The position numbers were made by a program, and so were the translations under genes. From Candidatus Woesearchaeota archaeon (lineage in GTDB: Archaea; Nanobdellota; Nanobdellia; Woesearchaeales; B72-G16): 64,000 bases of DNA. A model generated the notes under the pieces. The model made no database searches and was not told the origin of the DNA. It saw nothing but the letters and a program-made list of their open reading frames with translations. The stretch is taken from positions 4,845-68,844 of the forward strand of contig QMQO01000001.1 of NCBI GenBank assembly GCA_003650545.1, written 5' to 3'. Of this stretch, positions 10,771 to 49,434 are shown piece by piece (positions within the stretch are counted from its first letter, which is position 1; each line of letters starts with the position of its first letter).

Positions 10771-12225
10771 ATGAACAGAAAAGCAGCAATAGGGTTGTTT
10801 GAAGTTGGCTTTATGATGGTTGTTGTTCTATCACTGACAATAATGTCTGTTGCTTTGTTGAATAAGATAAACAAAGTGCATGTTATTGGTAAAAAACAAG
10901 CTGCATTGATTGAAGCTTACAAAGAAGGGGAGAAGACGCTGCTTTATATAGATGAAGCTACAAGTCTGGCTGCAAAGCAAACTATATATGACCTGGCAAA
11001 GTTGGCTGGCTTCAACCTACCAAAAGAATGTGGTGCGTATCTTGGTGTACCAAAGTGGCATGCACCTAGATGGGAAAATGGAAAATTCAAGGGAATGCAA
11101 TACTGTGAACCTGAAACAGAAGAGTTAGAAAATGACTTTATCAAAATGTTTAACTTAGCGTTTGCAGAGTATGCAGCTGAATTTTCCAGTAAAAATCTGC
11201 ATGTTAAGGTTCCGTTAGATAATCACGATATTGTGCTTATGCCAATTGAAAATAAAAATTCTATGGATATAATAGGTATTTCAAAGAAGCCTATACTGAT
11301 CAGTATTTTAAAAGATGCTATTGGCGCTGACACAGCAGGCTTGCTGAGGAAAACAACAATTAATGTAGATAGTGTTGATTATGATGTGGTGGTGTTGGCA
11401 GGAGAAACACATGAAGATGTAGTAAAAACAATATCACTAGATCTTGTAAAATGTTATAAGGATTCAAAAACAGATCCAAATGCTTGTAAGAATAAGCGGT
11501 ATATTGTGCGTAATGAGGTCACTAAAAATGATATAGAAGAATTCTTGAGTGATGAAGAAAATTTAATTAAAAACAGTATTGACAAACAGACTGCAAAAGA
11601 GCTTATAGGGAATAAATATTTTGTCTTTCCTACAACACAAATAACAGACGATAAAATTGAAACAAATTATATTTATGATTTCAAGGTTGAAAGAGGCAGG
11701 GTTACAGTGTCTCGTTCAAAACAGCTGCCTCTGGTGTGGCCAACAGATTATAATGTGGTAACCTCTTGTTATGGAAACAGAAAAATTTCTGGAAGAGCAA
11801 GCAAATTCCATAGAGGAGTAGATATCAGAGCAGGAGCCGGCGATAATATATACGCTATTGCTGATGGGAGTGTTACTTATGTTGGTTGGAAGGGAGGATA
11901 TGGAAATACTGTTCAAATTGATCATGGTAATTTTGTTTCGCTATATGGACATAATAAAGAGATAAAAGTTAGGAAAAATCAGAAGGTTAAGGCAGGCGAG
12001 GTGATTGCTCTTGCAGATAAAACTGGCGTGAGCAAAGGAGATCATCTACACCTTTCGATATATGTTGATGGAGAAGCCAAAGATCCTCTTGAATTTTATA
12101 TGCAACATCTCGGTAGTTTAGACGTGCTGGGACTGAGATTTGTAAAAAGAAGCAATTGCGTATACTATTTGGAAAAAAACAAATATGCGTATGCAGATTA
12201 TATTGAAGCAAATCAGGTAGGTTAA
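10771..12225 (+). CDS. M23 family metalloendopeptidase (peptidoglycan endopeptidase type) with pilin-like N-terminus
   Basis: C-terminal KFHRGVDIRAGAGDNIYAIADGSVTYVGWKGGYGNTVQIDHGNFVSLYGH...GDHLHLSIYVDGEAKDP carries the HxxxD and HxH zinc motifs of M23. N-terminus is MNRKAAIG/LFEVGFMMVVVLSLTIMSVALL. Confidence 0.85.
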   Translation: MNRKAAIGLFEVGFMMVVVLSLTIMSVALLNKINKVHVIGKKQAALIEAYKEGEKTLLYIDEATSLAAKQTIYDLAKLAGFNLPKECGAYLGVPKWHAPRWENGKFKGMQYCEPETEELENDFIKMFNLAFAEYAAEFSSKNLHVKVPLDNHDIVLMPIENKNSMDIIGISKKPILISILKDAIGADTAGLLRKTTINVDSVDYDVVVLAGETHEDVVKTISLDLVKCYKDSKTDPNACKNKRYIVRNEVTKNDIEEFLSDEENLIKNSIDKQTAKELIGNKYFVFPTTQITDDKIETNYIYDFKVERGRVTVSRSKQLPLVWPTDYNVVTSCYGNRKISGRASKFHRGVDIRAGAGDNIYAIADGSVTYVGWKGGYGNTVQIDHGNFVSLYGHNKEIKVRKNQKVKAGEVIALADKTGVSKGDHLHLSIYVDGEAKDPLEFYMQHLGSLDVLGLRFVKRSNCVYYLEKNKYAYADYIEANQVG

Positions 12226-14490
12226 ATGAAAAAACATCTGATCAGGAATGGAATGTTTGTACTGCTAATGTTGATAATGTTTGGCGGAATGATTTTGTGG
12301 TTTACAGAAGACAATGGCTCTAATCAGGTTACAGGAATGGTTGATTTGAACAAAGATGCAATTGATAGAATCGCACAATACGATGACATCATTAAGAAGG
12401 CAGCTCACAAGTTTAACGTGCCAGAGAGTTTGATCAAGGGCACTATTTATGTAGAATCTAGAGGAAATTATAAAGCAATATCAAAAAGGCCCGCGTATGA
12501 GGGCGGTGGTTTGTGTGGAGCAGTCGGCCTGATGCAATTAATGCCTTTGACTGCGTATAAGTACGGCAAGGATTATGGTTTAACAGTTCTATTCGAAGAT
12601 TCTCGTGATGCAAAATGTAATCCTGCTATGGCAAGAAGGTTGTACGATGCGATTCAAGGAAAGAGTGACGAAGATATCTTTCGGATGGATAATCGTTTCG
12701 ACCCTGAAAAAAACATCTATGCTGGAACTAATTATTTGGCTTATATGCTTCATACAAAATATGCAGGTGACCCAGAAGCTTACGCAAAAACAATGATAGA
12801 ATATAATTCTGGTATCTCCTGTAAAGAAAAAACAGTTGAAGAGTGTCGTGCTAGTTTAACAAAACAGACAAGTGATTATTTTGATTTTGTGTTGGATGTT
12901 ATAAGTGAATATGAAGGTGGCATCTTGCCAATCTCGGTCGCGCCACCAACCTATGCAAGCTATGTCAATAGAATCTATGAAACAACAGGCGTCTATCTGG
13001 TAGATCCATCTTTTAGAACCAGAGTAGATTTTGACTTTGGGGTTTATAAAAAAGCATTTGAAGAGTTTAAGAAGGTTGAAGAAGTGTGCGGGAAGTTCGA
13101 TAAGCAGAAAAAGTTTGACGATTGCGTAAAACAAGAAACAGAAAAGCTTGGTGGAGGTCTCAGGTGGGGTGTGGTTGGTGATGGTGTCAGTGATGAAGAC
13201 AAACTGATTAAGTTTGCAAAGCAGTACGAGCAATGCTTATCATCTTTAGATCATTTTTGTTATTGCGATCTTGATGTTCCTGACGGTTATGAGATCTATA
13301 CTGAGCAGGAAGCTCAGAACGAAGACGGTTTCTACAGATTTAAGTTGTTGAAGGATGGTAAAGTTGTTTATGCTAATAACGATTATGGGGTAATTCACGC
13401 ATTATGTATATATTCAAATCATAAGATAGAAAAAGTAAACAACCTTAGATTAAGCGATAATAAGGTTGTTGTTGGAAATAAAAATGAAGAAAAAGATGTT
13501 GATAGACTCAGAATGGTTAAATACATAGATGATAACTATGAGTTATTATCGTGTATAAGCGTAGAAAAACAAAAGCCTTTGGATTTACATGAATGCAGAA
13601 AAGCACCTATAAGAACCGCACTCATAAAAGCGAAAACAGGCCTTAGCTTATATGTGTCGGATGGTGTAAATGTTAAAGAAGAAGAGGTAGTCATAAATTT
13701 TGCTTATGATATTCCTGACGAGGTTGGACCTTCAAATGAACTGGCAATCAATGCTATAGATGAGTTTAGGGCTGAAGGCTCGGTTATGTTGAGTTGGCGA
13801 GATTCCCCAGACACAGACACAATAAAATATCTTGTTTATTATGGGAAAGGTTCTGTTTCTATTACAGAAGAACAAAACCCGCAACTAGAGGTTGTTGTTG
13901 CTGATATTCCTGAGAAAAATCTTTATTATGATTTAAGTGAAGATGCTAGGCCTGTTAAAGATAAACCAAATGAATTTGTTGTAGAACGTGTACCAGGCAG
14001 AGCTGATGACATTTCTCTAGAACATAATGAACCATATTACTCTTTCAAAGATAATAGGTATCATGTTATTATAGACAACTTAGAGGATGGTGTAGAGTAT
14101 AGCTTTGTAGTAGTACCTGTAGATATTTGGGGCAACAAGAATTTAGTTGTAGAAGAAGGCAAAAATATGATTAAAATTATACCTGAAGATGATTTACCTC
14201 CTGCTGCAATAGATTTCAGTGTTGCTTCAGATGGAACCGTTGCTTGGAATGTTGATTTAAAGAATTTAAAGAATGATGATGGTAGCGAGCTAGTAGATCT
14301 TCAGAATGTCTATGTGTATGAGAGTCCTAAGCCTTTTAGCTATATGGATATACCGAAAATGAATAAATATCGCACTCCAGTAAGTGGAAAGATGTATAAG
14401 GCGAGTAAGGGTCGTTATGTGGCTGTTGTTGCCAGAGATGAAACCGATCATGTCAGTAGATATATAAATATGATCTTATTAAAAAAGTAA
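12226..14490 (+). CDS. soluble lytic transglycosylase (SLT/GH23) domain protein with C-terminal FN3-like repeats
   Basis: The region PESLIKGTIYVESRGNYKAIS...AVGLMQLMPLTAYKYG...YAGTNYLAYML matches the SLT catalytic Glu-Ser and GLMQ motifs. C-terminal segments such as SVMLSWRDSPDTDTIKYLVYY and YSFVVVPVDIWGNKN look FN3-like. N-terminal anchor is MKKHLIRNG/MFVLLMLIMFGGMILWF. The start abuts the M23 gene stop. Confidence 0.85.
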   Translation: MKKHLIRNGMFVLLMLIMFGGMILWFTEDNGSNQVTGMVDLNKDAIDRIAQYDDIIKKAAHKFNVPESLIKGTIYVESRGNYKAISKRPAYEGGGLCGAVGLMQLMPLTAYKYGKDYGLTVLFEDSRDAKCNPAMARRLYDAIQGKSDEDIFRMDNRFDPEKNIYAGTNYLAYMLHTKYAGDPEAYAKTMIEYNSGISCKEKTVEECRASLTKQTSDYFDFVLDVISEYEGGILPISVAPPTYASYVNRIYETTGVYLVDPSFRTRVDFDFGVYKKAFEEFKKVEEVCGKFDKQKKFDDCVKQETEKLGGGLRWGVVGDGVSDEDKLIKFAKQYEQCLSSLDHFCYCDLDVPDGYEIYTEQEAQNEDGFYRFKLLKDGKVVYANNDYGVIHALCIYSNHKIEKVNNLRLSDNKVVVGNKNEEKDVDRLRMVKYIDDNYELLSCISVEKQKPLDLHECRKAPIRTALIKAKTGLSLYVSDGVNVKEEEVVINFAYDIPDEVGPSNELAINAIDEFRAEGSVMLSWRDSPDTDTIKYLVYYGKGSVSITEEQNPQLEVVVADIPEKNLYYDLSEDARPVKDKPNEFVVERVPGRADDISLEHNEPYYSFKDNRYHVIIDNLEDGVEYSFVVVPVDIWGNKNLVVEEGKNMIKIIPEDDLPPAAIDFSVASDGTVAWNVDLKNLKNDDGSELVDLQNVYVYESPKPFSYMDIPKMNKYRTPVSGKMYKASKGRYVAVVARDETDHVSRYINMILLKK

Positions 14491-23271: not shown

Positions 23272-23964
23272 ATGCATAAGCAGATTAATTATATAAGTCA
23301 AGAGGAGTGGCAGAAGCTAAATAGTGTTATTGTTAATGCCCGTGACAAGCTGATAATTAATACCATATATCATACAGGCTGCACTGTTTCTGAGCTTGTA
23401 AGGATAAAAGTAAAGGATGTTGACTTTGTGAACTCTATGATATACTTTCCTGCAGAAAACACAAAATCAAGGAAAGATAGGTTTTCAAGAATTCCAGTAA
23501 GTCTGGCGTTTAGGCTAAAGAGCTATCTTGAGTTAATAGGGGATGAAAAGAATCAGGATGTATTTGTTTTTGGTAGCAATAAACAAAGTGCAATATCAGA
23601 GAATAGAGTTAGGCAGATTGTAAAGAAGTATGCTGACAAGGCAGGAATTCAGAAAGTGTATGGAGTTGATAGCAAAGGAAGAAAGTTGTATGCTGTTACT
23701 GTTCACACATTAAGACATAGCCACATAAAACACGCAATCGACAAGAATGTTCCCTTACAGGCTATAATGAAGCAAGTAGGTCATAGCAACATAAGGACAA
23801 CAAAGTTCTATTATAATTTGAGTGCAAATGATGTTAAACAAGCTTATGAGCAAGCAGGTTTTGACGATTCTGATGAAGAAGAACTGATGTTTGGATCTGA
23901 CGAGCCAAACATGTCAAATATGCCAAATTCAGGGGATTATGGAGATTATGATGCAGACTCGTAG
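23272..23964 (+). CDS. tyrosine recombinase-like protein (catalytic-domain only, Arg I apparently replaced)
   Basis: HTLRHSHIKHAI (HxxR) and GHSNIRTTKFYY (His and Tyr) match integrase boxes. The box I position reads TGCTVSEL instead of TGLRxSEL. There is no N-terminal core-binding domain, and the C-terminal tail is acidic. Confidence 0.7.
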   Translation: MHKQINYISQEEWQKLNSVIVNARDKLIINTIYHTGCTVSELVRIKVKDVDFVNSMIYFPAENTKSRKDRFSRIPVSLAFRLKSYLELIGDEKNQDVFVFGSNKQSAISENRVRQIVKKYADKAGIQKVYGVDSKGRKLYAVTVHTLRHSHIKHAIDKNVPLQAIMKQVGHSNIRTTKFYYNLSANDVKQAYEQAGFDDSDEEELMFGSDEPNMSNMPNSGDYGDYDADS

Positions 23965-26900
23965 GAAGACTAAAGTTGTAAGAAAAAAGCATAGAATTCT
24001 GCTAATAAAAGGTCTCAATGTTGCGTTGATATTTATATTGTTTATAGTGATGATGCGTTTGATGATTTTTGTTGAGCCAGATATAGGGAATAAAGTTAGA
24101 AATATGTTTTTAGATGTTGATGAAAAAGAATATAAACCGATATTTGACTTAGGTCTAGTTGAGAAACAAACTGATAAGGAATTCGTTGATGTTAAAATAG
24201 AGGTTAAGAATAGAGACACACCAATAAAATCAGTAGAGTTTAAAGGGGCAAAAACTGATACGCTAAAGAATTTTAGAGTTGTCAATGTGGTTGAAGATAG
24301 CAATAATGCGAAGTTTGCTGAAATTTATTCAGTAGATTCTGCAGACGCAGAGTTTGATTCTGCGAAACTGATTGTTGAAGCTAATGGAAAAGATCTGTTT
24401 AAATGTGTTGATTGGGATGGAGAAAAACAAGAGTGCAAAGGAAAGTGGAAGAAGATTAAAGATATTACTCCAGGGGAGAATTATGAATTGACAGTGACAA
24501 AAGGTGATCCTGGCTTTGCAGAGATTGGTTATATCGCTCTGACTGATAAAGACGAATATCTCATTGATGCAGATTTTAAGATTAAAGGTGATGGAAATAA
24601 AGTTGATGTTGAGATAATACCTAAGGATAGTGTTATTAAGAAGATTGTGGTAAATGATTTTGAAAGAGATTCTTTAGATAATGACATGAGAATTGAAAAT
24701 AAAACAAATGAAAATGGTTTTGTGCAAAGTTATTCTATTGATCCAACTATGCTAGCTTTCGGCGATGTAGAAGTGACTGTTGTTGCGAGAGGAACAAAGT
24801 TGATGAAGTGTAAGGATTGGGATTTTGAAATGCAGAAATGTAAAGGGAACTGGGAAATTTGGAAGAATGGCCTTGTACCTGGAGTAGAATATACATTTAC
24901 TTTAACAAAAGAGGATCCTGGCTATGGAGAGATAGTTAATATATCTGATGCAGTACATCTAGATAGTAATTTGAGTTTTATCTCTAATATTTATGATGAA
25001 GTTAAAAGTAAGGATGGTGTATGGTCTGAACCAATCTATGAAAATGAGTATGTTAGAATTGTCTTCGAGGAAAATCTTACAGCTGATGATGACATAATGG
25101 TCTATGTAAGGAATAATCAAAGTCTTAATACTAATATAGAGGTTTATTATTATAATAGTACAGAAAAGATAACTGGTTTTCCTAGAATCATCAATGAGGA
25201 CTATTATAGGGTTTATCTAACAGGCATGACAGGTAGTCATGATACTTTTGACCTTAAGGTTGTTAATACAGACTCTGAGACAGCATATCTGGAGTTTGAC
25301 CATATAATAGATCCTAAATTAACACCTGTTCAGATTTTTTATGAGACCTTTCCTAATGCTGATGGGGCTTGGGATGGTTCTTCAGATACGGCACAGGATG
25401 AACCGGGTTGGGTGACAATTCAGGGTTCAAGTGATTCTAATGATGTCCAGGTGAGCAATGAAGATGTGGCTAGTGGCACTTTGCCGCCGTCAGGAGGAAA
25501 CCATTTAACATTTGAAGATTGTGATGATGGTCAGCTAATACCAAATACACAATATGATCTGGCTTGTGTGCCTATAGACTTAGATGGTTATTCTAATGTA
25601 ACTATAGAAGTTTATGGCCAATCAGATGATGTTGATGCGAATGAGTGGCTGCAGGTTTCATACTCAATAGATGCTGCAAGCTGTACAGATGGATCATGGG
25701 TGCAGTTAGGTTATTATGAAAACCCAACAGACGACACCTGGTATTTGATAACATATAGCATACCTAATGAAAATGCTAGTGCGAATTTTAGGCTGAGGTT
25801 TGCTTCGAAGTCAAACAGAGCAGGAGAGCATTTTTATATTGATGATGTAAAAGTAACAGGAAACCCAATTCCAGTTGTTGCAGATCCAAAAACTTATAAT
25901 TTATCATTGATAGGAAAAACAATATTTGAGGTTGGCGACACTATAGTCACTAGAGTTAATGTGACTGACGCAAGCGGCTCAGATGATATTGAAGCTGTTT
26001 TGATAACCATAACAAGTCCGAATTCAACAGATGTGGTTGTTAATGCCTCAATGACAAATGTTTCTTCTATTACTAATGGTTATGTCTATGAATATAATTA
26101 TACTATCCCTTTGGTGTTTTCTGCAATTGGAAATTGGAGTATAGTTATTTATGCAAATGATAGTTATTCTGTTTTGGGGCGAAACTCTACTAAGTTTACA
26201 GCATTCGATACTACAGCTCCAAGCTATGTTAACTTAAGCGAGTCTCCAGCACATCCTGCAACATACGCTCCGGGCCAAAGCTATCAGTTTAATGCAACAT
26301 GGACAGATAATCTAAATATTGATACTGTAATACTGGAATTTGATGGGGTTAATTATACAGTTCTAACTAATGATAGCAATGAATATTACTATTCCTTTAC
26401 AGACTTAGCTGTAGGAACATATAATTATACTTGGTATGCAAATGATACAAGCAATAATTGGAATAGCACAATAATGCAGAATTATACTATAAACCAGGCT
26501 AGCAGTGAAATAAATTTAACTTTAGATGAAAATGATTCTAATATAACAGTTGAAGTTGGTAGTTATGTTAATATTACTGCTACTCTAGTGACACCCATAG
26601 CAGGTTACATTGAATTATACAATAATGGAACTCTAATAAATAGTGGAAACAGTCCATTGAACAATTATACGCTGTTTAGCGCTATTGGAATTTATAATAT
26701 AACTGCTTTTTATCTAGAAACACATAATTATTCATCCGGTTATGAAACACATTATGTCATAGTACGGGATACTACGGCTCCTATAGTAGAGCTAAACAAT
26801 CCAACTAACGGGTATAATACATCTTCTACTTCGATCAACTTTAACTGGACAGTCTTGGACAATGTTGACACTAACTTGTCTTGTAATCTTACACTTGACG

Positions 26901-28573
26901 GTGTGACAAATGCAAGCAATATTGCTTCTTTGAATAATACACCAGTAAATTACTCTGTAAGCACTTTAAATGATGGAACACATTACTGGAATGTGACGTG
27001 CTGGGATAACTCGAATAATACTAATACTAGTGAAACGAGAAGCTTTACTATTGATACTGTTGGACCAATAATAGAGTTAAATGCACCAATTGAAGCTCAT
27101 AATTTTTCTACAAATACCATCAACTTTAATTGGACGGCGACTGATGCAAAACAAAATGAGATTACATGTAATCTGACACTAGATGGAGTTACTAATATAA
27201 GTGGAATAACATCTTTGAATGCGACGCCAACAAATTATACTGTCTCTGGCTTGTTAGATGGTTTGCATTACTGGAATGTAACGTGCTGGGATAAAGTTAA
27301 CAATACTAACACAAGCGCTACAAGAAGTTTTATAGTCGATACAGTGGAACCAAAAATAAATCTTACATCTCCAGTAAATTATTATAATTCATCTTCAAGC
27401 AATGTTTCATTTGAATGGATTGCAACTGATGGTCTTGATTCAGTATTGACATGCGATATAACAATAGACTATTCTGTGAACATGTCAGATGTCCTGTCAA
27501 CAAATAACACGCCAACCTTGGTTATTGTAACGGGATTACAATCTGGAACACATCACTGGAATGTAACATGTGGAGATGATGCGGGAAACTATAATACGAG
27601 CGAAACAAGAATGCTTGTTGTAGACCTTATAAATCCTGTTATAAATGCTGTAAGCGATTCACCAGATCCCTTGAATCAAACATCTTATATCAACATAACT
27701 GCTAATGTGACAGATGATCTTGGTGTTGACACTGTTTTGGTTGATATACTTGGAGTGAATTACACCATGCAACAGGGAACTATAGATATCTATTATTACG
27801 ATGGTTTTAATACAACCCAACTTGGTCTAATAAACTATACAGTCTATGCAAATGATACAGCGGGCAATAACGCAATAGCAGTCAGTAGCAACTTTACTGT
27901 TGTTGATGTAACGCTGCCTGTTATTAATAGTATAAGTGATTCGCCAGATCCGGTTGATCCAGGCACTGTTATAAACATAACTGCTAATGTTACAGATAAT
28001 ACAGGTGTTAGTAAGGTATGGGTTCAGATAAATGGTTTGAATTATACTATGTTAAAAGCTGACTCTGAAACATATTATTATGATGGTTTTGATACTAGCA
28101 GTGTTCCTGCTGGAACACATAACTACTATGTATATGCAAATGATACTTCTGGTAATAATGCAACTCCTATAGTTGGAAGCTTCTCTGTTAACCCTTTAGT
28201 TTCAGTAATGCTTTATAATTATCCTGTTAACTTCACCAGTACAGAGGTCGGCTTTACTGTTAATGCAACAAATGCCAAAGGCTTTCCAATGATTATTGAG
28301 AATGAGGGAAATGTCTATGTGAATGTTTCTATTAAAGGAACCGATATGATTGGGCAGATAAATAATAGCTATACAATACCTGTAAACCAGATTGAATATA
28401 GCTTATACGAGAGCTTTAATGAGAGTAACACTTTAACTACAGGATTTACTTCGATTGTTGATAACATACTATATTTCAGCAATAGGACAGTTTATTTTAG
28501 GATTTCTGTGCCAATAAATAGAATACAGCAAACTTATCAAGGTAATCTGACTATCAGAGCTATACAGAGCTAA
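23948..28573 (+). CDS. giant N-terminally anchored surface glycoprotein/adhesin with Ig-like repeat arrays
   Basis: The start MMQTRRKTKVVRKKHRILLIKGLNVALIFILFIVMM overlaps the recombinase-like gene stop. The protein contains several repeat families and dozens of N-x-S/T sequons in its C-terminal two thirds. Confidence 0.75.
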   Translation: MMQTRRKTKVVRKKHRILLIKGLNVALIFILFIVMMRLMIFVEPDIGNKVRNMFLDVDEKEYKPIFDLGLVEKQTDKEFVDVKIEVKNRDTPIKSVEFKGAKTDTLKNFRVVNVVEDSNNAKFAEIYSVDSADAEFDSAKLIVEANGKDLFKCVDWDGEKQECKGKWKKIKDITPGENYELTVTKGDPGFAEIGYIALTDKDEYLIDADFKIKGDGNKVDVEIIPKDSVIKKIVVNDFERDSLDNDMRIENKTNENGFVQSYSIDPTMLAFGDVEVTVVARGTKLMKCKDWDFEMQKCKGNWEIWKNGLVPGVEYTFTLTKEDPGYGEIVNISDAVHLDSNLSFISNIYDEVKSKDGVWSEPIYENEYVRIVFEENLTADDDIMVYVRNNQSLNTNIEVYYYNSTEKITGFPRIINEDYYRVYLTGMTGSHDTFDLKVVNTDSETAYLEFDHIIDPKLTPVQIFYETFPNADGAWDGSSDTAQDEPGWVTIQGSSDSNDVQVSNEDVASGTLPPSGGNHLTFEDCDDGQLIPNTQYDLACVPIDLDGYSNVTIEVYGQSDDVDANEWLQVSYSIDAASCTDGSWVQLGYYENPTDDTWYLITYSIPNENASANFRLRFASKSNRAGEHFYIDDVKVTGNPIPVVADPKTYNLSLIGKTIFEVGDTIVTRVNVTDASGSDDIEAVLITITSPNSTDVVVNASMTNVSSITNGYVYEYNYTIPLVFSAIGNWSIVIYANDSYSVLGRNSTKFTAFDTTAPSYVNLSESPAHPATYAPGQSYQFNATWTDNLNIDTVILEFDGVNYTVLTNDSNEYYYSFTDLAVGTYNYTWYANDTSNNWNSTIMQNYTINQASSEINLTLDENDSNITVEVGSYVNITATLVTPIAGYIELYNNGTLINSGNSPLNNYTLFSAIGIYNITAFYLETHNYSSGYETHYVIVRDTTAPIVELNNPTNGYNTSSTSINFNWTVLDNVDTNLSCNLTLDGVTNASNIASLNNTPVNYSVSTLNDGTHYWNVTCWDNSNNTNTSETRSFTIDTVGPIIELNAPIEAHNFSTNTINFNWTATDAKQNEITCNLTLDGVTNISGITSLNATPTNYTVSGLLDGLHYWNVTCWDKVNNTNTSATRSFIVDTVEPKINLTSPVNYYNSSSSNVSFEWIATDGLDSVLTCDITIDYSVNMSDVLSTNNTPTLVIVTGLQSGTHHWNVTCGDDAGNYNTSETRMLVVDLINPVINAVSDSPDPLNQTSYINITANVTDDLGVDTVLVDILGVNYTMQQGTIDIYYYDGFNTTQLGLINYTVYANDTAGNNAIAVSSNFTVVDVTLPVINSISDSPDPVDPGTVINITANVTDNTGVSKVWVQINGLNYTMLKADSETYYYDGFDTSSVPAGTHNYYVYANDTSGNNATPIVGSFSVNPLVSVMLYNYPVNFTSTEVGFTVNATNAKGFPMIIENEGNVYVNVSIKGTDMIGQINNSYTIPVNQIEYSLYESFNESNTLTTGFTSIVDNILYFSNRTVYFRISVPINRIQQTYQGNLTIRAIQS
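26768..27622 (+). repeat. three tandem 285-nt (95-aa) coding repeats inside the giant surface protein
   Basis: Units begin DTTAPIVELNNP, DTVGPIIELNAP and DTVEPKINLTSP. Each contains INFNWT...C(N/D)(L/I)T(L/I)D...HYWNVTCWD...NTS(E/A)TR. Confidence 0.85.
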
Positions 28574-28821
28574 GGTTTTATTCTGTAATAGAACATGAAG
28601 AAAGTAAAAATCATTAGTGCTAAAACTAAACTTAATGTGATTATGAATAGTTTTTTATCAGTGCTAAAGCCGAATGGAATAAAACCAATCACGCCAACTG
28701 CAGACACCTTGACATTGCTCTCTTTGTTTTTTGGTAGTAACAAAGAGCTAGCCATGAGAATGATTATTCCTAAGAATATTACCACAATTCCAATAAATGT
28801 TAGCTGGTTTTGTGTTATCAT
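28570..28821 (-). CDS. small polytopic membrane protein, hypothetical
   Basis: 83 aa with three hydrophobic segments. It converges on the adhesin gene with a 4-nt overlap. Confidence 0.45.
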   Translation of the reverse strand: MITQNQLTFIGIVVIFLGIIILMASSLLLPKNKESNVKVSAVGVIGFIPFGFSTDKKLFIITLSLVLALMIFTFFMFYYRIKP

Positions 28822-28864
28822 TCTAATTGGATTTTTTTATCTTAATAAGTATTTTTCCATAATC

Positions 28865-28874
28865 TTTATAAATA
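28865..28874 (+). promoter_or_regulatory. archaeal TATA box for tRNA-Val
   Basis: TTTATAAATA is centred about 27 nt upstream of the tRNA 5' end at 28897. Confidence 0.55.
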
Positions 28875-28896
28875 GGGTATATGTGCTATATAGAAC

Positions 28897-29068
28897 GGGC
28901 TCGTGGTCTAGCGGCTATCGGAAGACCGTAAATGACAGCGCCCTTACATTGTGAGATTGTTTCAATTGTTTCACACAAGAGAGGCGTTAATCCCCGGTTC
29001 GAGTCGGAGAATCAAAATTAGCTTTATCAATTTCAACTTGCATCTTCGCGAATATCCGGGCGGGCCCA
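28897..29068 (+). tRNA. tRNA-Val (anticodon UAC) with three introns
   Basis: Exons are 28897-28916, 28932-28948, 28982-29003 and 29055-29068. They assemble into a 73-nt cloverleaf: GGGCTCG TG GTCT AGCGGCTA TGAC A GCGCC CTTACAA GGCGT TAATC CCCGG TTCGAGT CCGGG CGGGCCC A. Introns are 15 nt (D-loop), 33 nt (37/38) and 51 nt (T-loop 59/60), each with a BHB-like fold. Confidence 0.85.
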
Positions 29069-29171
29069 TTCCTAGAAAATTTTTTATGTAGTAAAAAAAA
29101 TGGCTTTAGAGTGCTTGAAAATGCAGACTGTCTTACTATCTTGTTTGTCTGCATCTTCTTTGCATCTTTAA

Positions 29172-29295
29172 GCGGCAGTAGTATAGTGGTTAGAGATTCA
29201 TAATCGGCCAATACCCGGCGTTGCCAACGCCGTAACCGGGGTTCAAATATGCCGAAGCAATTTATGCTTCGCGATTGAAAGTCCCCGCTGCCGCA
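29172..29295 (+). tRNA. tRNA-Gly (anticodon GCC) with two non-canonical introns
   Basis: Exons are 29172-29193, 29212-29247 and 29282-29295. They give a 72-nt cloverleaf: GCGGCAG TA GTAT AGTGGTTA GTAC C CGGCG TTGCCAA CGCCG TAAC CGGGG TTCAAAT CCCCG CTGCCGC A. Introns are 18 nt (D-loop) and 34 nt (T-loop 59/60). Confidence 0.85.
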
Positions 29296-29453
29296 TACGA
29301 GATAATATTTTTTTTTAGACATAAGGAAAAATCATTTTATGGAAAAATGTTTTATGGAAAAACCTTACAACATTGATACAACTCAGAATAATATAGTGAA
29401 GAAGACAAGAAGAACTCGCATATAAGCATATAAGATTTTTTATATTTTCGAAA

Positions 29454-30125
29454 ATGAAAATACTTTTCCTAGAAGCAAGAAACGATATTCAGCTAAAGAG
29501 AATAAAAAATATAGAAATTCTTCCAACCAAGATTGGTTTATTAGGCATAGTACAATATGCAGACCAATTACAAAAGTTAAAAGAAACCCTTGAAAATTCG
29601 GGCAAGGAAGTTATTTTTGGAAAATCGGCTAAAACAAAGAATGTTGGTCAGATACTTGGTTGTGATATTAAAGCTGCAGAAAGTATTGAAGATAGAGTTG
29701 ATGCATTCTTATTTCTTGGAGATGGGTTATTTCACCCGAGAATGCTGTTGTTAAAGTTAAAAAAACCTGTATTCTTCCTAAGTCCCACAAAAAATAAGAT
29801 ATATCAGTTAAAGGACTCTGATCTAAAGAGAATAAAAATCAAGCAGAAGACGGCTACAATCAAGTATCTATCTTCTAAGGAAATAGGAATAATCGTTAGT
29901 ATAAAACCAGGGCAGAATCAGACAAAGGCTGCTATTTTATTGAAAGAAAAGTTGAGGAAACAAGGTAAGAATGCATACTTATTGATAGCAGATACTGTTG
30001 ATTATCAACAACTTGAGAATTTTCCATTTATAGAATGTTTTGTTAACACAGCTTGTCCTAGAATAGCACTAGATGATTACGAAGCAATAAAAAAACCAAT
30101 TCTTAATATTGATGACGTCCCTTAA
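29454..30125 (+). CDS. dph2: diphthamide synthesis Dph2-like protein, N-terminally short
   Basis: GQILGCD, FLGDGLFHP and NTACPRIALDDY resemble archaeal Dph2 domains 2-3. At 223 aa it is about 100 aa shorter than typical archaeal Dph2. Confidence 0.55.
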   Translation: MKILFLEARNDIQLKRIKNIEILPTKIGLLGIVQYADQLQKLKETLENSGKEVIFGKSAKTKNVGQILGCDIKAAESIEDRVDAFLFLGDGLFHPRMLLLKLKKPVFFLSPTKNKIYQLKDSDLKRIKIKQKTATIKYLSSKEIGIIVSIKPGQNQTKAAILLKEKLRKQGKNAYLLIADTVDYQQLENFPFIECFVNTACPRIALDDYEAIKKPILNIDDVP

Positions 30126-49275: not shown

Positions 49276-49434
49276 GCGGGGATGCCGGAGTGGCCAAACG
49301 GGACAGACAATCTGGTCTAAGCTTAGGTCGCTTAACGCGTAGGTAACCTGTTGGCTTAGACAGAAGCATAGCTTTTATTAAAAAGCTGCACTTTTGGAGC
49401 AATGCCTACGGGGGTTCGAATCCTCCTCCCCGCA
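49276..49434 (+). tRNA. tRNA-Leu (anticodon UAG), class II, with three introns and a 7-nt anticodon micro-exon
   Basis: Exons are 49276-49306, 49321-49327, 49346-49359 and 49403-49434. They give an 84-nt molecule: GCGGGGA TG CCG GAGTGGCCAAA CGG G ACAGG CTTAGGA CCTGT TGGCTTAGTGCCTAC GGGGG TTCGAAT CCTCC TCCCCGC A. Introns are 14 nt (30/31), 18 nt (37/38) and 43 nt (variable loop). The acceptor and T arms are unambiguous. The internal exon assignment rests on hand-drawn BHB cores. Confidence 0.7.

Follow-up and report, generated by a model that had tools for sequence, protein, structure and literature searches.

Multiple bulge-helix-bulge introns interrupt three tRNA genes on a Woesearchaeota-type archaeal contig

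How can a stretch of archaeal genome hold tRNA genes that standard tools do not see? The question is raised by 64,000 nucleotides (nt) of a Candidatus Woesearchaeota archaeon (assembly GCA_003650545.1, contig QMQO01000001.1, positions 4,845 to 68,844; here the window, whose own coordinates are used throughout), with a G+C content of ~34% and genes for the archaeal markers Dph2, eIF-6, prefoldin, eIF-1A, S8e, L44e, eIF2-alpha and GINS. ARAGORN returned 0 tRNA matches in the 64 kb, no tRNA reached gathering scores in the window with Rfam, and a permissive E-value Rfam scan of 28700-29500 gave noise alone (MIR854, IsrR and RalA fragments). A sequence-only reading had proposed that adjacent tRNA-Val and tRNA-Gly genes lie at 28897-29295, neither of them contiguous. 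This proposal is borne out: both fold into cloverleaves after five inserts are removed, and the sequence and intron coordinates hold, with the end of Val now set at 29068 and the start of Gly at 29172. A third hidden gene, a tRNA-Leu with three introns that was absent from that reading, lies at 49276-49434, an interval flagged by scanning the window for G+C-rich islands. In total the window contains three tRNA genes and eight introns, every gene having been missed by ARAGORN and Rfam, and the genes are very probably functional, their introns being spliced out in this Woesearchaeota-type DPANN archaeon.

Three interrupted genes and the motifs at their junctions

The three genes, their exons and their introns are as follows, with intron sites given as tRNA positions and helices described as parts of the bulge-helix-bulge (BHB) motif.

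28897..29068 (+): tRNA-Val(UAC), 73 nt mature; regular cloverleaf once spliced (ARAGORN); CCA not encoded
28897-28916, 28932-28948, 28982-29003, 29055-29068 (+): the four Val exons
28917..28931 (+): Val intron 1 (15 nt), in the D-loop at 20a/21; GCGG:CCGT forms the central helix (4/4), flanked by bulges CTA and AAA; mini-hairpin TC-GGAA-GA, outer helix 2 base pairs (bp)
28949..28981 (+): Val intron 2, 33 nt, canonical site 37/38; central helix 3/4 (CTT:AAG plus an A.C mismatch), inner helix TGTGA:TCACA
29004..29054 (+): Val intron 3 (51 nt), in the T-loop at 59/60; TTCG:CGAA forms the central helix, flanked by bulges AGT and TAT
29172..29295 (+): tRNA-Gly(GCC), 72 nt mature; regular cloverleaf once spliced (ARAGORN)
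29172-29193, 29212-29247, 29282-29295 (+): the three Gly exons
29194..29211 (+): Gly intron 1 (18 nt), at 22/23, within the D-stem's 3' strand; GGTT:GGCC forms the central helix (4/4), flanked by bulges AGA and AAT; hairpin GATT-CAT-AATC, inner helix 4 bp, outer helix 2 bp
29248..29281 (+): Gly intron 2 (34 nt), in the T-loop at 59/60; TTCA:TGAA forms the central helix, flanked by bulges AAT and AGT; hairpin CGAAGCA-ATTTA-TGCTTCG
49276..49434 (+): tRNA-Leu(UAG), class II, 84 nt mature; cloverleaf once spliced (ARAGORN); 20 kb from Val and Gly
49276-49306, 49321-49327, 49346-49359, 49403-49434 (+): the four Leu exons, the second a 7-nt micro-exon
49307..49320 (+): Leu intron 1 (14 nt), in the anticodon stem at 30/31; GGAC:GTCT forms the central helix (4/4), flanked by bulges AGA and AAG; inner helix 2 bp, outer helix 1 bp, hence a relaxed BHB
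49328..49345 (+): Leu intron 2, 18 nt, canonical site 37/38; central helix CTTA:TAGG (4/4), bulges GGT and TAA
49360..49402 (+): Leu intron 3 (43 nt), in the variable-arm loop; GCTT:GAGC forms the central helix, flanked by bulges AGA and AAT, with a 6-bp inner helix and an outer helix of 0 bp (HBh' type)

Once spliced, the three sequences are called by ARAGORN as Val(tac), Gly(gcc) and Leu(tag), and the Val and Gly junctions were recovered identically by an intron-aware spliced aligner of our own that was used alongside it. The exons are colinear and contiguous in all three genes, which are therefore neither split nor permuted tRNA genes. Intron-less orthologs match the spliced window sequences: the Val exons are close to those of the intron-less loci L044 and L016, the latter of which scores 63.8 bits for Val and 67.6 bits for Gly with the Rfam tRNA model, and they are identical to the exons of metagenome locus L106 (CEPX01403171.1). 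The L106 gene carries a lone 34-nt D-loop intron, unlike the window's in sequence, and none at 37/38 or 59/60; with exons identical and introns different, intron content turns over faster than exons. For Leu, the ortholog at locus L113 has a 37/38 intron only and lacks introns 1 and 3, and it matches the spliced window sequence over both of the corresponding junctions, the spliced intron 3 junction (TTAG/TGCC) being uninterrupted L113 sequence. The two Leu anticodon stems differ by one compensatory pair (ATAGG:CCTAT against ACAGG:CCTGT). An alternative parse of the Val D region, with a perfect D-stem GTCT/AGAC, a 13-nt loop and a 10-11 nt insert after position 25, was rejected because the original junction gives the ortholog consensus GGTCTAG(Y)GGCTATGACA exactly.

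Junctions were fixed by the cloverleaf; scanning for BHB motifs without the cloverleaf constraint produced far too many chance candidates, so cloverleaf-fixed junctions and orthologs were used instead. With junctions set in this way, seven of the eight introns combine a fully paired (4/4) central helix with two 3-nt bulges and an inner helix no shorter than 2 bp. Val 37/38 departs from this with a central helix of 3/4, as is likewise seen in the Val 37/38 introns of relatives; the inner helix reaches at least 2 bp in all eight. At random window positions a 4/4 helix occurs at 2.6% of sites and one with an inner helix of at least 2 bp at 0.43%, and when intron interiors are shuffled, 0.02-0.8% of shuffles reach this combination. 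The BHB motifs that the sequence-only reading had placed at non-canonical sites are thus present, with 4/4 central helices in four of its five inserts and two 3-nt bulges in all of them. Its assignment of CGGAGA:TCTTCG in Val intron 3 as the outer helix was mistaken, since this is the inner helix (h') and the T-stem forms the outer one. Outer helices measure 5-6 bp at Val 37/38 and both 59/60 introns. In the two D-region introns and throughout the Leu gene they are 0-2 bp long, and the motifs there are relaxed rather than strict hBHBh' ones.

Recurrence and covariation of the intron sites in relatives

The relatives provide what we regard as the decisive support for these introns being real. 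A metagenome scan for the Val D-loop site, which required an insert of 10-40 nt and left its sequence free, gave 50 contigs. Together with the window's own, 45 distinct introns (44 environmental) interrupt Val at 20a/21, and the central helix is 4/4 in 44 of them. Nucleotide 16 of the tRNA covaries with its partner inside the intron: C is paired with G in 16/16 cases, and T has A as its partner in 26 and G in 3. When the BHB cores of 41 of these introns were aligned (87% of cells paired), the covariation score was 0.567 vs 0.211 in shuffles, with 0/500 shuffles reaching the observed value and slid partners scoring <=0.16, and compensatory changes were found at all four inner-helix pairs. At 59/60, where junctions were set by T-stem complementarity alone, 30 of the 34 distinct introns have a 4/4 helix, and covariation is seen between base 57 and the base it pairs with.

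The sites themselves recur by tRNA family. When GTDB species genomes were scanned for exact matches to the Gly 5' exon, 102 loci were obtained, none from the same species and nearly all in metagenome-assembled genomes (MAGs) of Candidatus Woesearchaeota or Nanoarchaeia, and 78 Gly(GCC) orthologs from Woesearchaeota-type genomes, counted as species, were refined. These carry a mean of 0.83 introns (none in 33, one in 26, two in 18, three in 1), with 37/38 interrupted in 34 species, 22/23 in 15, 59/60 in 14 and 52/53 in 2. All 15 introns at 22/23 have a 4/4 helix in which GGTT pairs with GACC or GACT (GGCC in the window), and the majority of the 14 at 59/60 end in TGAAAG or CGAAAG. Among the Val genes of the GTDB loci, 59/60 is interrupted in 9 species and 37/38 in 8; over all relatives, the loci with a Val 59/60 intron number 18 besides the window, and the window's three-intron Val layout is also found in five environmental genes (L148, L138, L105, L113 and L118). 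The sites thus appear to be hot-spots fixed within each tRNA family of the lineage: 20a/21 in Val, 22/23 in Gly and 59/60 in both.

Several further observations concern the relatives' loci. Val lies directly upstream of Gly in many of them, and the tRNA cluster is located directly upstream of the rRNA operon in L016 (1-1445, Val-Gly-Glu) and L087 (3425-8000, at least Gly), an arrangement not seen in the window. ARAGORN miscalls the Gly gene with a 22/23 intron at L040 6838-6929 as tRNA-Ser(cga), and the Val gene at L014 3024-3115 as 'tRNA-Stop(tta)'. Many MAGs labelled 'uncultured Methanosarcinales archaeon' contain a Woesearchaeota-type tRNA-Gly, which makes that label look doubtful.

Origin of the introns, competing explanations and the splicing enzyme

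The sequence-only reading had gone further and described the Val and Gly introns as homologously placed, and had proposed that they spread between the two genes by transposition or gene conversion. The first claim stands for the T-loop, where both introns lie at 59/60, and fails for the D region, where the Val intron sits in the D-loop at 20a/21 and the Gly intron in the 3' strand of the D-stem at 22/23, so that the BHB motifs are offset by 2 nt. In the relatives each family keeps its own site, with all 44 further distinct Val D introns at 20a/21 and 15/15 Gly D introns at 22/23.

The second claim, a recent gain of matching introns through exchange between Val and Gly, we consider unlikely. 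In its favour, a 59/60 intron is present in both genes, and these two introns have in common the 8-mer CTTCGCGA and a like inner helix (CGRAG...CTTCG); large-scale intron transposition has been reported in Thermoproteales (PMC4090602). The 8-mer is the only shared element, at p ~0.04 before correction for 28 comparisons, and because no pair of window introns is significantly similar, recent transposition or conversion lacks sequence support. The ends of 59/60 introns are moreover constrained by pairing with the T-loop sequence that the two tRNAs share, so that this part of the similarity is expected anyway. The D-region sites, as described above, differ and are family-fixed in dozens of relatives, and the window's Gly intron 1 resembles an intron at the same site in another species (14/18 identical to that of L040), which fits vertical inheritance.

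Copying between positions is nevertheless visible in a relative, a further point for such exchange: in the Val gene of L047 (minus strand of the locus), the 92-nt intron at 37/38 and the 88-nt intron at 59/60 share 29/32 nt, which reads as direct evidence of copying between intron positions there. The 37/38 intron of L018 is similar to that of L047, and one hairpin, AATCYTTT..GGATT, turns up repeatedly in Gly genes, at 22/23, 37/38 and 52/53. In the Val genes of L132 and L144 part of the neighbouring exon recurs in diverged form inside the insert (AGGACATCGCC against ATGACGTCACC). The gene can therefore be parsed in two ways, with a BHB-compatible D-loop intron or, following the spliced alignment, with an anticodon-stem intron; the exon copy hints that introns can arise by local duplication. 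Within the window, Val intron 2 contains a perfect tandem duplication of ATTGTTTCA (two copies, 28956-28973) and may have grown through local duplication. Overall, the introns appear to be mostly vertically inherited, with frequent loss and replacement and occasional copying.

Several points weigh against the genes being spliced and functional. Splicing is deduced from DNA, neither EndA nor ligase genes lie in the window, so that the enzyme too is deduced, and intron-less copies of these tRNAs may exist elsewhere in a genome of which the window covers 64 kb. Among the sequences compared, no relative has an intron at the sites of Leu introns 1 or 3. Precursor folding, which the sequence-only reading had named as a check, gave a divided answer. 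Whole-precursor folding recovers the BHB of the two T-loop introns and of Gly intron 1 (pair probabilities 0.55-0.91), with the motif of Val intron 3 (0.63-0.69), the helix of Gly intron 1 (0.55-0.84) and the central helix of Gly intron 2 (0.81-0.91) all in the minimum-free-energy fold. It does not recover the BHB at Val intron 1 (probability 0.03 in the thermodynamic ensemble) or Val intron 2 (~0), and gives it weakly in the three Leu introns (0.1-0.35). At Val intron 1 the low value arises because a GGUCU:AGACC helix competes, and the weak folding at Val introns 1 and 2 and in Leu is read as the effect of competing local helices. We do not count it against splicing, because the junctions are fixed by orthologs.

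The same gaps leave room for the idea that the loci are decayed tRNA pseudogenes with random insertions, intact copies elsewhere doing the work, as their escape from standard tools and our view of a single 64 kb segment might suggest. We judge this very improbable: the exons are intact and form regular cloverleaves, those of Val are identical to the L106 exons, the BHB motifs in the inserts are far above chance, and the insert positions recur with compensatory changes in many species. That the inserts are self-splicing group I or II introns, which in the case of group I exist in Woesearchaeota rRNA genes (PMC6125680), or scars of mobile elements, such as the integrase gene ~5 kb upstream might evoke, can be practically dismissed, given that at 14-51 nt they are far below ribozyme intron size, match no Rfam family at gathering or permissive thresholds and fit BHB geometry in every case.

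For spliced tRNA genes, the expected pathway is the archaeal one. Each gene would be transcribed as a precursor RNA in which a BHB, a 4-bp exon-intron helix between two 3-nt bulges, would form wherever exon meets intron; EndA, the tRNA splicing endonuclease of archaea, would cut each bulge, an RNA ligase would join the exons, and CCA, which is not encoded, would be added after joining. The non-canonical motifs make use of the tRNA body itself. In the 59/60 introns, T-stem and T-loop mimic the geometry of the anticodon arm at 37/38, copied one arm over (5-bp stem, 7-nt loop, cut after the sixth loop base), and at the D-region introns the conserved G18 and G19 with their neighbours supply one strand of the central helix. 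In the Leu gene an order of intron removal may be expected: the outer helix of intron 2, which is the anticodon stem, forms only with intron 1 removed (pair probability 0.00 -> 0.24).

The relaxed motifs, with outer helices of 2 bp at the D-region introns and 0-1 bp at Leu introns 1 and 3, argue for a broad-specificity endonuclease. The sequence-only reading had drawn the same conclusion and pointed to heterotetrameric or epsilon2 enzymes; broad specificity is a fair expectation, and these two are not the sole candidates, as an alpha4-type EndA with an 'L3' loop is described for DPANN in PMC5829648. No PF01974 or PF02778 protein was found among the ~50 window open reading frames (ORFs) with Pfam, and tblastn with M. 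jannaschii EndA (sequence checked against PDB 1a79) had no match in the window or in the relatives' loci searched. Two protein-database searches for EndA returned methanogen or Micrarchaeota relatives only and no Woesearchaeota EndA.

Flanking sequence, and the place of the introns among known archaeal systems

Around the genes, candidate expression signals were noted from sequence.

28865..28874 (+): TTTATAAATA, an element resembling a TATA box; its centre lies ~27 nt upstream of where tRNA-Val begins
29080..29085 (+): T6 oligo-T run, 12 nt past the tRNA-Val 3' end
29308..29316 (+): T9 oligo-T run, 3' of tRNA-Gly

By analogy with archaeal promoter architecture, TTTATAAATA is a putative promoter part; on inspection of the sequence, no clear promoter is visible for the Gly or Leu gene. 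Oligo-T runs follow all three tRNA genes on the 3' side, and the T6 run after Val, as an archaeal terminator, and the T9 run after Gly are possible terminators. The Val-Gly spacer (29069-29171) measures 103 nt, against ~5-26 nt in the syntenic relatives checked. It contains an 8-bp hairpin (ATGCAGAC/GTCTGCAT, ~29121-29154), and TGCATCTT(C/T) occurs in it twice, at 29150 and 29161, with one more copy at 29039 inside Val intron 3; these copies cluster locally, although over the whole window their number does not exceed chance. A threefold repeat, TGCATCTTC, likewise clusters locally and was set aside, as its core 9-mer is no commoner in the window than chance allows (4 seen, 1.7 expected).

In the public assembly, two ORFs of 119 and 111 amino acids with no Pfam match overlie the Val and Gly genes (28595-28954, plus strand, and 28987-29322, minus strand; 2142-2501 and 2534-2869 in L001) and are probably artefacts of gene calling. 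The stretch just upstream of the tRNA cluster, 23272-28573, holds a gene for a tyrosine recombinase (Phage_integrase, 23272-23964) and, after it, one for a 1560-amino-acid Ig-repeat surface protein, and this region may be an integrated element near the tRNA genes. A Dph2-like ORF at 29454-30125 (223 amino acids) matches Pfam Diphthamide_syn only from profile position 65/302; its N-terminal part would seem to be absent or its start miscalled, the upstream frames being short and interrupted. At 10771-14490, Peptidase_M23 and SLT transglycosylase genes, members of bacterial cell-wall hydrolase families, stand side by side on this archaeal contig.

What we describe is a known archaeal phenomenon and not a new kind of system, and it leaves the accepted mechanism unchanged. 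All intron positions seen here are already listed for archaeal tRNAs (PMC4090602). The canonical reference is the strict hBHBh' intron at 37/38 (Marck and Grosjean 2003, as cited in PMC4090602), whose site Val intron 2 and Leu intron 2 share; the window differs in that six of its eight introns lie outside the anticodon loop and several outer helices are weak or absent. In Crenarchaeota, non-canonical BHB introns occur at 20/21, 22/23, 30/31, 45/46 and 59/60 (PMC4090602), with up to three per tRNA (PMC4090602, PMC4033280, PMC8450103), and the removal of one intron can be needed before the next BHB forms (PMC8450103). The closest likeness is to the multi-intron tRNAs of Thermoproteales such as Pyrobaculum calidifontis (Sugahara 2008 and Fujishima 2010, as cited in PMC4033280, PMC4090602 and PMC8450103), which have up to three BHB introns, non-canonical sites, nested dependence and a mean of 0.84 introns per tRNA gene (PMC8450103), vs 0.83 for Gly(GCC) in the relatives studied here. 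Unlike those hyperthermophilic crenarchaea, the present host is an AT-rich (~34% G+C) small DPANN archaeon, its endonuclease is presumably not an (alpha-beta)2 enzyme with the crenarchaeal loop, and this window holds no evidence of recent intron transposition.

Disrupted tRNAs and EndA variants have been described within the same superphylum (ARMAN-2 epsilon2; alpha4 with L3), in PMC3239211 (Fujishima 2011), PMC3488258 (Hirata 2012) and PMC5829648. In the literature, we found tRNA disruption in DPANN touched on only by Kaneta et al. 2018 (PMC5829648). According to that study, whose sample included one Woesearchaeota and one Pacearchaeota genome, alpha4-type EndA with the L3 loop is tied to more tRNA gene disruption in DPANN, and incomplete tRNA sets hint at disrupted genes gone undetected; family-specific hot-spots and multi-species covariation, as found here, are not described in its text as far as accessible. 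The value added by the present loci lies in these lineage-wide, family-specific hot-spots and in the annotation blind spot that they expose.

A broader possibility, which we rate just short of evenly balanced, is that Woesearchaeota-type archaea underwent their own lineage-wide expansion of BHB introns, at a density rivalling that of Thermoproteales and at family-fixed hot-spots, with an alpha4-derived EndA independently broadened in specificity. If so, much of the 'missing tRNA' content reported for DPANN would be an annotation artefact and not gene loss. In any case these archaea are often described as gene-reduced, so hidden tRNAs bias such inferences. The comparative data add a second, distant lineage with Thermoproteales-like intron density, in which sites are stable within a tRNA family and intron sequences are quick to turn over, and in which the gain and loss of BHB introns can be studied together with the evolution of EndA specificity.

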